NCBI GenBank assembly: GCA_036574205.1
Contig: JAINCQ010000037.1
Location: forward strand, 19,541-83,540
Reading direction: 5' to 3'
DNA: 64,000 bases
Source: Elusimicrobiota bacterium
GTDB lineage: Bacteria; Elusimicrobiota; Elusimicrobia; Elusimicrobiales; UBA9959
Shown here: in pieces, positions 14,556-18,079 of the stretch
How positions within the stretch are numbered: the first letter of the stretch is position 1
How the letters are laid out: each line of letters begins with the position of its first letter
Made by a program: the position numbers and the translations under genes
The notes under the pieces: model-generated
Database searches by the model: none
Told to the model about the DNA's origin: nothing
What the model saw: only the letters and a program-made list of their open reading frames with translations

Positions 14556-14631
14556 ATTTACCTCGCAAGCTTATATATAGAAACTCCCCTTTGCATAAAT
14601 ATTACCTTCCGTGACGATTTAATTGCTATAT

Positions 14632-14654
14632 CCTCTCTCCTTTTTTGGAGAGGG
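14632..14654. other. Imperfect hairpin: cctctctcc / tttttt / ggagaggg
   Basis: Read directly. It has 6 perfect base pairs (ctctcc/ggagag) plus partial extension around a T6 loop. Confidence 0.5.
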
Positions 14655-14692
14655 TTAGGGGGAGGAAATTTATTTTTCACCCTCATCCTTCA

Positions 14693-14715
14693 CCTTCCCC
14701 CATCAAGGGGGAAGG
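14693..14715. other. Perfect 9-bp G/C hairpin: ccttccccc / atcaa / gggggaagg
   Basis: Read directly. On the plus strand it is followed by aattttaatat, so it could act as an intrinsic terminator for plus-strand read-through, but no plus-strand gene lies upstream. Confidence 0.5.
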
Positions 14716-14756
14716 AATTTTAATATCTCAAAAGAACTCTCTCAGAGATAAATTTT

Positions 14757-15012
14757 GCTCACCGCTCATTTTTTCTCAAACCCTTGCTCCTCGCAAAACT
14801 GTAAGCGCAAGTTTTGCTGCGGACTTTCAAGTCACGCATAACCTTGTCGGCTTGCGCGACCCCGCCTCGTTCGCCTGCATTGCCCAAAGCGAACTGCGGC
14901 CTTGCGAACAGCACGCGAAACCGTTTGAGGTTTCGCTCTAAAGGCAGTCCTCACCCGTGCAAAGCCAAACCATTGGGTTTGCTCAGAACCAGCAAGCGGG
15001 CGATGGGAATCG
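14757..15012 (-). repeat. GC-rich composite repeat unit L1 (256 nt)
   Basis: L1 shares two identical boxes with unit L2: a 19-nt box gctcaccgctcattttttc (14757-14775) and a 35-nt box tttgctcagaaccagcaagcgggcgatgggaatcg (14978-15012). The 35-nt box ends in an 18-nt copy of the tRNA-Gly 3' end. L1 contains two copies of the two-hairpin module. Confidence 0.8.
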
Positions 15013-15028
15013 GTTGCAAATAAAATTC

Positions 15029-15157
15029 GCTCACCGCTCATTTTTTCGCAACCCGCCCCTCGTCCGACTGTATAGCCAAAGTCGGACTGCGGGCTTTCGA
15101 TTCCCACGCAAAGCCTATCGGCTTTGCTCAGAACCAGCAAGCGGGCGATGGGAATCG
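15029..15157 (-). repeat. GC-rich composite repeat unit L2 (129 nt)
   Basis: L2 has the same 19-nt box (15029-15047) and 35-nt box (15123-15157) as L1, with one copy of the two-hairpin module between them. Confidence 0.8.
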
Positions 15158-15251
15158 AACCCTATGCCGCTATGGTTGCTCAAATAGAGCTTCCCAGCGG
15201 GCGATGGGAATCGAACCCTGTGCCGCTATGGTCGCTCAAATAGAGCTTCCC
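15140..15251 (-). repeat. Two tandem 56-bp units, each carrying a copy of the 3'-terminal 23 nt of tRNA-Gly
   Basis: Units 15140-15195 and 15196-15251 differ at 2 positions. Each has agcgggcgatgggaatcgaaccc (identical to tRNA positions 15252-15274) followed by a 33-nt segment ending in agagcttccc. Confidence 0.85.
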
Positions 15252-15322
15252 AGCGGGCGATGGGAATCGAACCCACGTCTAAAGCTTGGGAAGCTCTCGT
15301 TCTACCATTGAACTACGCCCGC
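15252..15322 (-). tRNA. tRNA-Gly (anticodon CCC), 71 nt, no encoded CCA
   Basis: The reverse complement reads GCGGGCG-TA-GTTC-AATGGTA-GAAC-G-AGAGC-TTCCCAA-GCTTT-AGAC-GTGGG-TTCGATT-CCCAT-CGCCCGC-T. This is a full cloverleaf, nearly identical over the 5' half to E. coli tRNA-Gly(CCC) as I remember it. The 3' flank is GGG, not CCA. Confidence 0.92.
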
Positions 15323-15327
15323 ATCTT

Positions 15328-15333
15328 ATTATA
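15328..15333 (-). promoter_or_regulatory. Candidate -10 box (TATAAT) for the tRNA-Gly transcript
   Basis: The minus strand reads ...TAGTATAATTTTATAAAGGTATAATAAGAT|GCGGGCG. A perfect TATAAT ends 5 nt before the mature tRNA 5' end. No convincing -35 box. Confidence 0.3.
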
Positions 15334-15357
15334 CCTTTATAAAATTATACTAAAAAA

Positions 15358-15903
15358 TCATCTATTTTTTATTAAACTCAAAAATTCATTTCTTATTTTT
15401 TCGTCTTTTTCAAAACAACCAAGCATTGAACTAGTTATAGCTATTGATGTTTCATTCCTTACTCCTCTTGATGTCATGCACAGATGTTGAGCCTCTATTA
15501 TAACTCCAACCCCTTTTGGTTTTATTTTCTCAAATATAGTTTTTGATATTTCAACAGTAAGCCTTTCTTGAATTTGTAGCCTTCTTGAAAAAACTTCTAC
15601 AATTCTAGGAATTTTGGAAAGGCCTATTATAACTCCATCTGGAATATATGCAACATGTGCCTTGCCAAAAAATGGAAGAAGGTGGTGTTCACAAGTCGAA
15701 TAAAATGTTATGTCTTTTACTATAACCATCTCTTTATAATCAACTTTGAAAAAAGCGCCGTTTAAAACTTTATCTATATCCTGAGAATACCCACTAAAAA
15801 TTTCACCCAATGCCTTCCTTACCCTTTCCGGGGTTTTTATAAGACCTTCCCTTTTCGGATTATCCCCTATCTTTTTAATTAGTTCTTCTATGTTTTTTTC
15901 CAT
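15358..15903 (-). CDS. folE: GTP cyclohydrolase I
   Basis: 181-aa ORF with STCEHHLLPFFGKAHVAYIP and EAQHLCMTSRG motifs. Confidence 0.9.
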   Translation of the reverse strand: MEKNIEELIKKIGDNPKREGLIKTPERVRKALGEIFSGYSQDIDKVLNGAFFKVDYKEMVIVKDITFYSTCEHHLLPFFGKAHVAYIPDGVIIGLSKIPRIVEVFSRRLQIQERLTVEISKTIFEKIKPKGVGVIIEAQHLCMTSRGVRNETSIAITSSMLGCFEKDEKIRNEFLSLIKNR

Positions 15904-16621: not shown

Positions 16622-18079
16622 TTAGGGTATCTTAAGAGTTTTTATATAGTTTATTGCTTGTTTCTGAGTTTTTATTTTACCTTCAAGTTGTAGATTTATT
16701 AGTTTTTTCAGTATTTTCCCAACATTCGGTCCAGATGGTATATTAAGATTTTTCATTATAGTATCCCCATTTATAAGAGGCTTTATATCGGATTTTGAAT
16801 TATATTTTTCATAATTTTTAATTATTGAGTTTACAACCTGTAAAAATCTTAATGTTTTTTTAAATCCAGTCCTAGGTAATTTGTTTGTTATTGCAAATGG
16901 CTTTGCCTTTGTTTTTTTATAAGATTTTTCAAGTTTTTTTTCACTTATATAACTTGAATGATCACCCCATGATAATATCAAAAGTCCAAGTGCTGCCTCT
17001 TTTAAATCATAAAATATTCTCAATATAGCTTTTTGCGTTATTATATTATTATGTGCAATATTGCCTATCCTGAGATGATTTGCTATTATTGTTTTTATAT
17101 ACTTTATTTCATTATTTGAAAACCTATAATCTCTTAATATTCTTTCTGCAAGTATTGCCCCATATTCTTCATGACCAAAAAATCTGAGCCTGTTGTCTAT
17201 AACCTTTGCTTTATGAGGCTTTGCAATATCATGCAAAAGAGCGGCCATTTTTATTTCGTTTTTTCGGTTTTCTATTTCTTCTATAACTTTTTTTGAAGCA
17301 GATAAATACTTTTTTGGTGAAAGATAAAGTATATCAAGTCTTTTCAGGACATTAAAGGTGTGTTTTAATACACCTCCCTTACCATAATAGATTTCAGCGC
17401 ATTTTATCTGAGATTTAAGAATAGGTAGAATTTCAAATAAAACTTCACTTTCAGCCATTTTTTTAAATACTGAAGATGAGTTATCAGATTTAAGTATTTT
17501 TAAAATCTCTTCCCTTATCCTCTCCTTAGCGGAAAGAGAAATAAGCTTCTTACAGTCAACTATTTCTTTATGTGTTTTTGGGCTTATTTTAAAGCCCCAA
17601 GACATAAATCTATATGCTCTTAAAATTCTCAAAGGGTCATCATGAAAACTTTCTGGAGTAATAGTTTTTATAATTTTATGTTTTAAATCTTTTATCCCTC
17701 CAGTTAAATTTATTATGTTTTTTGGGTTTAGCCTTAAATTAAATTTTTCATTTGTTATCTTTATGTTGGAGTTTTTTAATGGCACGGTAAGAGAATTTAT
17801 TGTAAAATCCCTTTTGAATATGTCGGAGTTTATATCGTCTATGCGGGAAATATCTACAGTGAGATTTTTGAAGAGATTTATTCTGTATATTCCTCTTTCC
17901 TTATCAAGAGGAAAGATGTTATATTTGTTTGATATTTTTTTTAGTATCTCAAAAAAAAATTTTGGGTTAGCGGATATAACAATATCAATATCGTATATAT
18001 CTTCTTTAAGAAAATAATCTCTTATGGCTCCGCCAACGAGATAAGTTTCATAATCTCTTAATAAATAAAACAAATCCAT
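16622..18079 (-). CDS. cca: CCA-adding tRNA nucleotidyltransferase with HD domain
   Basis: 485-aa ORF with the class II polymerase-beta N-terminus (LVGGAIRDYFLKEDIYDIDIV, RDFTINS) and an HD-domain region (LLHDIAKP). Confidence 0.8.
   Translation of the reverse strand: MDLFYLLRDYETYLVGGAIRDYFLKEDIYDIDIVISANPKFFFEILKKISNKYNIFPLDKERGIYRINLFKNLTVDISRIDDINSDIFKRDFTINSLTVPLKNSNIKITNEKFNLRLNPKNIINLTGGIKDLKHKIIKTITPESFHDDPLRILRAYRFMSWGFKISPKTHKEIVDCKKLISLSAKERIREEILKILKSDNSSSVFKKMAESEVLFEILPILKSQIKCAEIYYGKGGVLKHTFNVLKRLDILYLSPKKYLSASKKVIEEIENRKNEIKMAALLHDIAKPHKAKVIDNRLRFFGHEEYGAILAERILRDYRFSNNEIKYIKTIIANHLRIGNIAHNNIITQKAILRIFYDLKEAALGLLILSWGDHSSYISEKKLEKSYKKTKAKPFAITNKLPRTGFKKTLRFLQVVNSIIKNYEKYNSKSDIKPLINGDTIMKNLNIPSGPNVGKILKKLINLQLEGKIKTQKQAINYIKTLKIP

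Follow-up and report, generated by a model that had tools for sequence, protein, structure and literature searches.

The 64,000-nucleotide window analyzed here (contig JAINCQ010000037.1 of an Elusimicrobiota bacterium, assembly GCA_036574205.1) contains, directly downstream of its sole tRNA gene and on the same strand, an array of hairpin-bearing repeats whose units constitute a tRNA-anchored, copy-number-variable, sense-strand-structured repeat family. The family is new and well supported: it has no match in Rfam, and no description of it could be found in the literature. On balance, the units are probably non-autonomous mobile elements which insert into the T-loop/3′ end of tRNA genes, duplicate 17 bp derived from their target, and are read through from the tRNA promoter. 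An earlier note on this DNA had described three copies of a two-hairpin module; the hairpins are real, but the true unit is about 145 nt long with five helices, and only one of the three copies is intact (14995-15139), the other two being in a state of decay which that note had missed, along with the tRNA gene, the strand, the direct repeats of the tRNA 3′ end, a third hairpin, and a closing helix. The relevant strand of the hairpins is the minus strand, which is that of the tRNA.

The array is anchored by a tRNA-Gly(CCC) gene with no encoded CCA (15252..15322, minus strand, as are all the array features below; ARAGORN; Rfam tRNA model, 71.6 bits), the last 18 bases of which recur three times downstream, at 15196, 15140, and 14995; at 52-59% GC, the whole region stands out as an island in a genome of about 31% GC. 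Reading along the minus strand, the tRNA is followed by two 56-nt mini-blocks, one 145-nt unit, and about 270 nt of decayed related sequence which extends to about 14723 and consists of three unit fragments. The intact unit (14995..15139), matched over 14995-15132 by the covariance model R1 described below (146.1 bits, E=1.1e-33), is of the short or S type and comprises i) a leader, tgctggttctga (15128..15139), of a kind (TGCT..CT[AG]AG) that also opens units at other loci but is not present in tRNA trailers lacking a unit; ii) hairpin B (15108..15127), with an 8-bp stem gcaaagcc/ggctttgc; iii) a head, gtgggaatcgaa (15096..15107, found as inverted repeats I5-I7), which is reverse-complementary to positions 54-65 of the tRNA (the T-loop and the 3′ strand of the T-stem) and provides the 5′ strand of a helix, P1; iv) arm A (15056..15095), in which the alignment fold and the minimum free energy (MFE) structure place a J1 linker (g)aaag, a 3-bp helix PA0 (CCC:GGG), an internal loop GCA/GA, and the 8-bp hairpin A (15062-15087); v) hairpin C (15012..15053), with a stem GGTTGC/GCAACC, an invariant G.U, an A6/U-rich helix, a tandem GA/GA, and an apical GC-GGUGA-GC; and vi) a terminal direct repeat, gattcccatcgcccgct (14995..15011), identical to tRNA positions 57-73 at 17/17 nucleotides, the first 9 of which form the 3′ strand of P1.

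The hairpins of the earlier note are found with perfect stems where it had placed them, hairpin A three times (14793-14800/14810-14817, 14869-14874/14889-14894, and 15062-15069/15080-15087) and hairpin B twice (14915-14936 and 15108-15127), the two hairpin B stems being separated by two compensatory double changes, as that note had said. Its conserved hairpin A flanks read CCGCAG...CGAGG on the minus strand, and the pattern CCGCAGN{18,30}CGAGG occurs three times in the window compared with 0.01 expected from shuffles; a conserved hairpin C string, GCTCACCGCTCATTTTTTC, occurs twice. Beyond the intact unit lie a fragment in which a leader and a mutated hairpin B are followed by the opening bases of a head before the sequence breaks off (14953..14994; families D1 and D9); a degenerate fragment, 4a (14861..14940), with hairpin B (14915-14936), a decayed head gtgctgttcgcaag, hairpin A (14869-14894), and cgaggcgggg, lacking both hairpin C and the terminal repeat and sharing about 71% of its bases with the intact unit over a stretch of 63 nt (family D3); and a degenerate unit, 4b (14723..14860; 67.7 bits against model R1, E=4e-14), with a decayed hairpin B and head (gtgacttgaaag), a hairpin A (14793-14817), and the loop of hairpin C (14757-14775), but no terminal tRNA repeat, its last 17 nt matching the tRNA at only 7/17 positions.

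To collect further copies, a pattern built from the conserved single-stranded parts was scanned against GTDB species genomes, where it returned 108 loci: eight in GCA_020723765.1 (labelled Elusimicrobium minutum TT109_36_37) plus one more metagenome-assembled genome (MAG), the remaining ~100 matches being chance occurrences in GC-rich DNA. A second pattern, scanned against metagenome contigs, added about 25 loci. The 33 distinct units collected in this way were used to build covariance model R1, which yields 50 hits with E<=2e-6 in 470 kb of collected sequence; the units are found in Elusimicrobia genomes and metagenomes, a narrow taxonomic range. They occur singly or as head-to-tail arrays, with the parts in the order leader, hairpin B, head, hairpin A on its 3-bp helix, hairpin C, and tRNA copy, and they are of two types, a short S type of about 140 nt and a long L type of about 200 nt with an extra module between hairpins A and C; a tRNA-S-L array is present at five loci of GCA_020723765.1 (four tRNAs and the array of L031 at a contig end). 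Several of the collected loci end inside unit arrays (L031, L105, L109, L152, L178, L180, L190, and L209), and for L031, L105, L152, and L180 these are true contig ends, suggesting that the units may break short-read assemblies at tRNA genes.

Two unrelated repeats also came up in the scans. One, a MITE-like (miniature inverted-repeat transposable element) family that matched the pattern by accident, is a 230-330-nt interspersed repeat with terminal inverted repeats ctagggcctgttaacgctatatgcctg, present in at least 8 copies in the betaproteobacterial MAG MFD06435 (L018, L052, L053, L077, L084, L090, L094, and L104). The other, in MAGs of Bacteroidota and Spirochaetota (L023, L039, L045, and L051), has the form GAGCGGA[AT]AGCCCGCAG-hairpin-CGAGGACTTGGAGCGGATAGCCCG, shares strings with the scan pattern, gives no model R1 hit, and lies away from tRNA genes; it may be a separate structured repeat family.

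The consensus fold was obtained on the tRNA-sense strand with RNAalifold, followed by explicit pair counts. Hairpin B (8 bp) is followed by a three-way junction closed by P1, the arms of which are hairpin A and the long hairpin C. In P1 (7-9 bp), the head (G[UC]GGGAAUC) pairs with the first bases of the terminal repeat (GAUUCCCAU); arm A consists of a linker GAAAG, the 3-bp PA0, the internal loop GCA/GA, and a hairpin A of 7-8 bp with a loop of 10-12 nt of the form ..UU..CAUAC[AG]; a linker GCGG then leads into hairpin C, in which a variable 5-bp stem is followed by the invariant G.U, the A6/U-rich helix, a Y:R pair, tandem G.A, and the apical GC-GGUGA-GC; and the 3′ tail of the unit (8-10 nt) is the acceptor 3′ strand. 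The proposal that selection has acted on a folded RNA or single-stranded DNA (ssDNA) rather than on primary sequence is borne out by this larger sample, in which the stems do keep their complementarity. In a MAFFT-only alignment of 24 units, 97.7% of cells are standard pairs, compared with 85.7 +/- 0.8% after shuffling and 31-58% when the partners are slid, and double changes are seen at 13/29 pairs (85 cells); in a model-based alignment of 54 hits, 93.2% of cells are standard pairs compared with 75.0% after shuffling, and double changes are seen at 35/41 pairs (316 cells), distributed over hairpin B (8/8), hairpin A (7/7), hairpin C (11/13), P1 (6/8), and PA0 (3/3). PA0 switches from UCC:GGA to CCC:GGG in 3 units and to UUC:GAA in another; a U:A pair in the otherwise constant hairpin C loop becomes C:G in 3 units; and orthologous units of related genomes differ by G-C to A-U (L088 and L205) or C-G to U.G (L140 and L178). 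Chance similarity, or plain duplication debris free of structural constraint, might have been suspected from the decay of two of the three window copies, but is already refuted by the three flank-pattern matches, by the E value of 1e-33 for the intact unit, and by the failure of any of 500 shuffles to reach the observed pairing or covariation; we assign it next to no probability, in agreement with the earlier note.

The earlier note had also asked whether the copies adjoin tRNA genes, and this is true of every unit with known upstream sequence: a same-strand tRNA lies directly upstream of 39/39 assessable units, and of the other 11 model R1 hits, 10 run into the edge of a locus or contig, and the last lies behind a tRNA-like 3′ end that carries no annotation. 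At most loci the first unit begins 4-12 nt past the tRNA end given by ARAGORN. Units are carried by 18 tRNA species (Gly-CCC, Gly-GCC, Arg-TCT, Arg-GCG, Arg-TCG, Thr-CGT, Leu-TAA, Leu-CAG, Leu-CAA, Glu-TTC, Ser-TGA, Ser-GGA, Val-CAC, Val-TAC, Lys-CTT, His-GTG, Met-CAT, and Pro-TGG), 8 of them within GCA_020723765.1; in the 64-kb window, they occur only at its single tRNA gene. Since the trailers of tRNAs without a unit are unrelated sequence, the leader (TGCT..CTAAG) and hairpin B belong to the unit and not to the native trailer.

The two ends of P1 are tied to the local tRNA. Intact units all terminate in positions 57-73 of the tRNA they follow, with 17/17 identity in 30 units, and the terminal repeat always starts directly behind the TTC of the T-loop. 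In the proposed duplication, the left edge is fixed between tRNA positions 56 and 57, and the right edge falls at or within a few nt of position 73 in many loci (among them L190, L088/L205, and the intact unit of the window), as would follow automatically from a distance that is 17 nt in every tRNA. The heads likewise follow the tRNA, down to the T-stem bases specific to each: GGGAATC at Gly, Thr, and Arg-GCG; GGGACTC at Leu-TAA, Leu-CAA, and His; GGGATTC at Leu-CAG, Glu, and Ser; AGGATTT at Val and Met; and CAGGACTC at Lys. The tRNA-His unit has a mutated repeat (GAATCCC), and its head agrees with the tRNA (GAGTCCC) instead. In one variant family (L036), a match to tRNA positions 1-7 is found as well, on the 5′ side of hairpin B, so that the whole repeat can pair to form a minihelix resembling the acceptor and T-stem, with hairpin B in place of the D and anticodon arms and the junction in place of the T-loop.

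Pair counts and energies both distinguish the strands. G.U cells outnumber A.C cells by 96 to 24 (51 to 24 when the invariant pair is left out). The intact unit of the window, folded as sense RNA, reaches an MFE of -70.4 kcal/mol (z=-6.0, MFE frequency 0.20) with a structure equal to the consensus fold, whereas the antisense strand is 12 kcal/mol weaker and ill-defined (-58.4 kcal/mol, MFE frequency 0.026). We conclude that the tRNA-sense strand is the folded one, and RNA appears likelier than DNA as its folded form. A structure on one strand backed by compensatory changes is what characterizes a structured non-coding RNA (ncRNA) in general, and the units have it. Inspection of the sequence led us to reject a K-turn, C/D-box, or H/ACA identity for the hairpin A flanks, G49-C77 covarying as a Watson-Crick pair and no RUGAUGA/CUGA arrangement being present.

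If the folded strand were DNA, the unit could be a recombination site in which P1 makes the sense strand mimic the duplex T-arm and 3′ end of the tRNA, allowing a tyrosine recombinase of the host, or one supplied in trans, to integrate it. Such a site would resemble integron attC and the attP(+) hairpin of CTX phage (a mimic of dif), where structure prevails over sequence, one strand is active, and a folded helix mimics the duplex site; and indeed P1 reproduces the duplex of tRNA positions 57-65 (54-73 in L036), the stems are conserved in structure and not in sequence, the strand specificity fits, and a fold is likewise obtained under DNA parameters (-37 kcal/mol, z=-5.0). We nonetheless consider an ssDNA site unlikely: the invariant G.U, the many other G.U pairs, and the tandem G.A all favor RNA; no recombinase is linked to the units in the flanks of 24 loci; the unit ends have no R″/R′ consensus and, in alignments A1 and A2, no RYYYAAC...GTTRRRY core sites, nor are there the cassette ORFs (open reading frames) or the integron integrase expected of attC arrays or CALINs; and strand exchange in the T-loop would break non-cognate tRNAs by replacing their 3′ part with element sequence, yet near-identical cores with perfect local repeats are present at 18 tRNA species.

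This last objection extends to any origin of the repeats in a classical attP x attB crossover, which, taking place in the T-loop, would destroy the new tRNA by giving it the old 3′ end of the element; such an origin was rejected since it would leave foreign 3′ ends on non-cognate tRNAs. Direct repeats of about 17 bp that match the 3′ end of a tRNA are the classical signature of P4-type integration. The units might accordingly be taken for scars of integrase-bearing islands or prophages, fused attL and attR arms left by deletion of the interior, with the 17-nt repeats as att cores, and they do share with tyrosine-integrase elements of the T-loop sublocation both direct repeats that begin in the T-loop and reach the tRNA 3′ end (with 17/17 identity in 30 units) and tandem accretion at one tRNA gene, the window itself having tandem copies of the tRNA 3′ end. 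Against this, the units have no integrase and no ORF and are 100-fold smaller; no unit-bearing phage, plasmid, or viral contig was found by BLAST of phage and plasmid collections or in IMG/VR, where matches to the unit patterns proved to be chance occurrences in GC-rich coding sequence, and no integrase recurs nearby; the fold covaries; and a single core family of about 125 nt with precise ends is present in 50 copies at 18 tRNA species, each with local repeats, which is beyond attP-attB crossover without breakage of tRNAs and cannot be explained by independent internal deletions. Island scars are, in our judgment, very unlikely. Also rejected was extension of the tRNA 3′ end as a primer along an antisense template, which would explain ragged distal ends but not the spread between different tRNAs.

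Comparison of related loci bears on turnover. FolE, encoded beside the array, is 100% identical to a protein of an Elusimicrobiota MAG, and the gene order CCA-adding enzyme, small ORF, FolE, tRNA-Gly(CCC), CBM-domain protein, and giant Kelch-repeat protein is kept in related MAGs, whose loci were reached through window proteins P0003, P0005, P0006, P0018, P0024, and P0026 (queries with FolE and P0001 gave none). The spacer 3′ of the orthologous tRNA-Gly is empty in L009, holds other small repeats in L001 and L003, a remnant consisting of hairpin B only in L002, one complete unit in L004, L005, and L008, and an array in the window; in L004 and L008, both hairpins are found again with different stems and conserved flanks. 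Within one genome, the same hairpin A and a near-identical core are present at Leu-CAG, Glu, and Ser-GGA, and such cores at unrelated tRNAs imply recent copying. Distal members of an array tend to be more decayed than proximal ones: model scores fall from 146 bits proximal to 68 distal in the window, from 147 to 133 in L178, and from 131 to 22 in L207, and in L105 the second, L-type unit scores 103 and the third 68; L190 is an exception (proximal 62.2, distal 68.4).

The tRNA-Gly loci of this clade draw several kinds of small insertion, as indicated by a different hairpin element, cctgcc[ct]gccgaagc...gcgtag[ag]c[ag]gg, which flanks the same tRNA-Gly in L001 (5815-5870 and 6035-6070), at the equivalent place in L003, and in L010 (4060-4110); one copy of this element interrupts a partial 5′ tRNA duplicate in its D-loop. 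Upstream of the tRNA in L002 (5669-5945) is an insertion of about 275 nt with terminal inverted repeats gggttcactgaaaaa, an IS3-type transposase lying 3 kb away; since L001 and L003 lack this insertion, it represents a MITE-like polymorphism. The window has its own example in the two mini-blocks (15140..15251; 96% identical, repeat family D2), each made of a 33-nt insert (gggaagctctatttgagc[ga]accatagcggca[ct]a) and a 23-nt copy of tRNA positions 51-73. Pairing between GGGAA at the start of the insert and TTCCC of the T-stem yields a terminator-like hairpin, TTCCCA..TGGGAA, and no further copy was found among 216 loci or in IMG/VR; the mini-blocks are a small insertion of another, unexplained kind than the units.

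The main rival to a mobile element is an RNA that serves the host, either cis-acting or released as an ncRNA, co-transcribed with tRNAs and multiplied into arrays by unequal crossing-over between the 17-nt repeats; it might be a 3′-trailer structure that steers tRNA 3′ processing, stability, or read-through, or a mimic of the tRNA 3′ half that titrates a factor binding the T-loop or acceptor. The sense-strand fold with its covariation and G.U bias, the lack of a terminator separating tRNA from unit, the persistence of intact units at tRNA-Gly(CCC) across three diverged lineages, the compensatory changes in orthologous units (L088/L205 and L140/L178), and the L036 variant, which pairs the entire repeat into an acceptor/T-stem-like minihelix, would all suit such an RNA. 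A host function fits poorly, however, with the facts that only some tRNAs carry units and orthologous loci in close relatives do without them, that decayed copies adjoin intact ones, that near-identical cores have recently been copied between unrelated tRNAs of one genome, and that the taxonomic range is narrow. We regard a host-serving RNA as possible but not likely.

In Rfam 15, only the tRNA passes the gathering score, and even at E<=10 over 14600-15400 nothing covers the units, so that known ribozymes, tmRNA, YrlA, and introns were rejected. No ORFs lie inside or between units, and the region is judged non-coding because L004 and L041 have ACG in place of the ATG in aaaaaATGAGCGG (the hairpin C loop); a 102-amino acid ORF with a TTG start that runs through the array (minus strand, 14832-15140) is almost certainly spurious and carries a risk of misannotation. 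A promoter or terminator role was rejected, as there is no sigma-70 excess and hairpins B and C have no U-tract. Between the array and the downstream CBM gene (14640-14720) are two G/C-rich hairpins, cctctctcc tttttt ggagaggg and ccttccccc atcaa gggggaagg, the second of which scores as a plus-strand terminator. The gene for the CCA-adding enzyme (16622-18079, minus strand) lies two genes upstream of the window array and also adjoins the unit-bearing tRNA-Arg(TCG) in L036 (4345-5850); tRNA genes here have no encoded CCA, but this proximity probably reflects synteny only. A palindrome downstream of tRNA genes in M. kandleri (PMC5217627) is unrelated to the units.

Among small repeats, the units resemble REP/BIME, BOX, Correia/NEMIS, and MITE elements in being short, non-coding, multi-copy, modular, hairpin-forming, and non-autonomous, with decayed copies. 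Those elements, however, are scattered among genes, with terminal inverted repeats and duplications of 2-10 bp, or none, whereas the units are exclusively tRNA-3′-linked (all 39 assessable units follow a same-strand tRNA, contrary to the dispersal of REP, BIME, and BOX whatever the neighboring gene), co-oriented, and possessed of a target-matched internal segment and a three-way-junction fold; specifically with respect to MITEs, neither end (TGCT..CTAAG or ..TTTGCGGGA) is an inverted copy of the other, the duplication is at least 17 nt, and no parent IS was seen. Nor are the units IS200/IS605 derivatives, given the 17-nt flanking direct repeat, the junction after GGTTC being suggestive. Retron msr-msd regions also have end inverted repeats that form a closing helix around a short variable hairpin and a long hairpin, but the units have no adjacent reverse transcriptase gene and no Rfam match, and tRNA linkage with a terminal tRNA copy is not a retron feature.

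We return to the mobile element that we favor. The 17-nt repeat would be a target-site duplication with its left edge fixed between T-loop positions 56 and 57, and because such a duplication makes both copies local, the terminal repeat would always match the local tRNA despite the near-identical cores. The unit would have no promoter of its own and be transcribed by read-through from the tRNA promoter, as suggested by the strict co-orientation with the tRNA and the absence of any terminator or promoter; the folded strand, most likely RNA, would be recognized by a trans-acting enzyme, with the head as a candidate for the segment that pairs with the T-loop of the target. Insertion might proceed by target-primed reverse transcription, or by a casposase-like staggered cut measured from the T-loop; the route through RNA would also explain variable duplication lengths, but insertion may also go through DNA.

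The casposon offers a parallel in geometry. In A. boonei, the casposase uses the T-loop-coding palindrome of tRNA-Pro as an upstream determinant and duplicates the adjacent 15 bp, and its integration is polarised like that of CRISPR spacers (PMC5137440). The site of the units would similarly be set by the T-loop, with 17 bp duplicated rather than 15 bp, and repeated insertion next to the tRNA, as next to a CRISPR leader, would give repeat-insert-repeat arrays with the oldest members most distal; the geometry of the arrays described here is consistent with polarised insertion of the casposase or CRISPR kind. Casposons differ in being kilobases long, in having terminal inverted repeats, and in encoding Cas1 and PolB, whereas the units are about 125 nt with no inverted termini, no protein, no Cas1 in the flanks of unit loci, and a conserved single-strand fold; and unlike the casposon target, the segment duplicated by the units is wholly inside the tRNA (positions 57-73).

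Several observations weigh against a mobile element. i) The right edge of the duplication is inconstant, extending at some loci from 0 to about 80 nt past position 73 into the local trailer. ii) The last member of some arrays is a partial unit that stops at a hairpin loop; such ends, together with the shifting right edge, fit unequal crossing-over or deletion as well as insertion. iii) Neither a free or circular form nor a strict filled/empty allele pair was seen among the loci examined, so that insertion itself is unobserved. iv) No transposase, integrase, or reverse transcriptase is linked to the units: all-against-all BLAST of the flanking ORFs of 24 loci revealed no recurrent protein, no ORF resembling reverse transcriptase lies beside any array, and a look for its motifs in the window was unconvincing (one 201-amino acid ORF carries YIDD). 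v) An intact unit is present at tRNA-Gly(CCC) in lineages whose FolE proteins are only 74-79% identical, which could mean a host function. vi) The covariation of head and terminal repeat could reflect selection for P1 in place and not a guide function.

More tentatively still, and with less confidence than in a mobile element as such, we suggest that the units may be bacterial guide-bearing retroelements comparable to short interspersed elements (SINEs), in which the head of the read-through RNA would pair with the T-loop and T-stem of a target, the RNA would be copied back after the tRNA with a 17-bp duplication, and arrays would grow from the tRNA-proximal end as CRISPR arrays grow at the leader; we think this doubtful in its full form. 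Eukaryotic tRNA-derived SINEs and tRNA-targeting retrotransposons are likewise non-autonomous, use a strong small-RNA promoter, and find a safe harbor near tRNA genes, while group II introns recognize their targets by base pairing (EBS-IBS), and target duplications of variable length are as expected from target-primed reverse transcription. The units differ from these in being bacterial, with no reverse transcriptase identified, no poly(A), no intron domains, and no Rfam intron match, and the resemblance to SINEs and to group II retrohoming may be one of function only. Were such a guide to exist, one or two base changes in the head would retarget the element to another tRNA.

The units may also have practical consequences, breaking MAG assemblies at tRNA genes and lending themselves to mistaken annotation as ORFs, such as the 102-amino acid frame at 14832-15140. 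If our reading is right, they would represent a new class of small bacterial non-coding repeat, bound exclusively to the 3′ ends of many tRNA genes; the defining set of features, which are attachment to the tRNA 3′ end, a T-arm-matching segment, and a covarying three-way junction, is found together in none of the known classes. They would also provide a tractable case of how an element encoding no protein finds a safe harbor, with the T-loop recognized either by pairing or by a ruler-type integrase, and the idea that tRNA genes act as leaders for polarised arrays would become directly testable.

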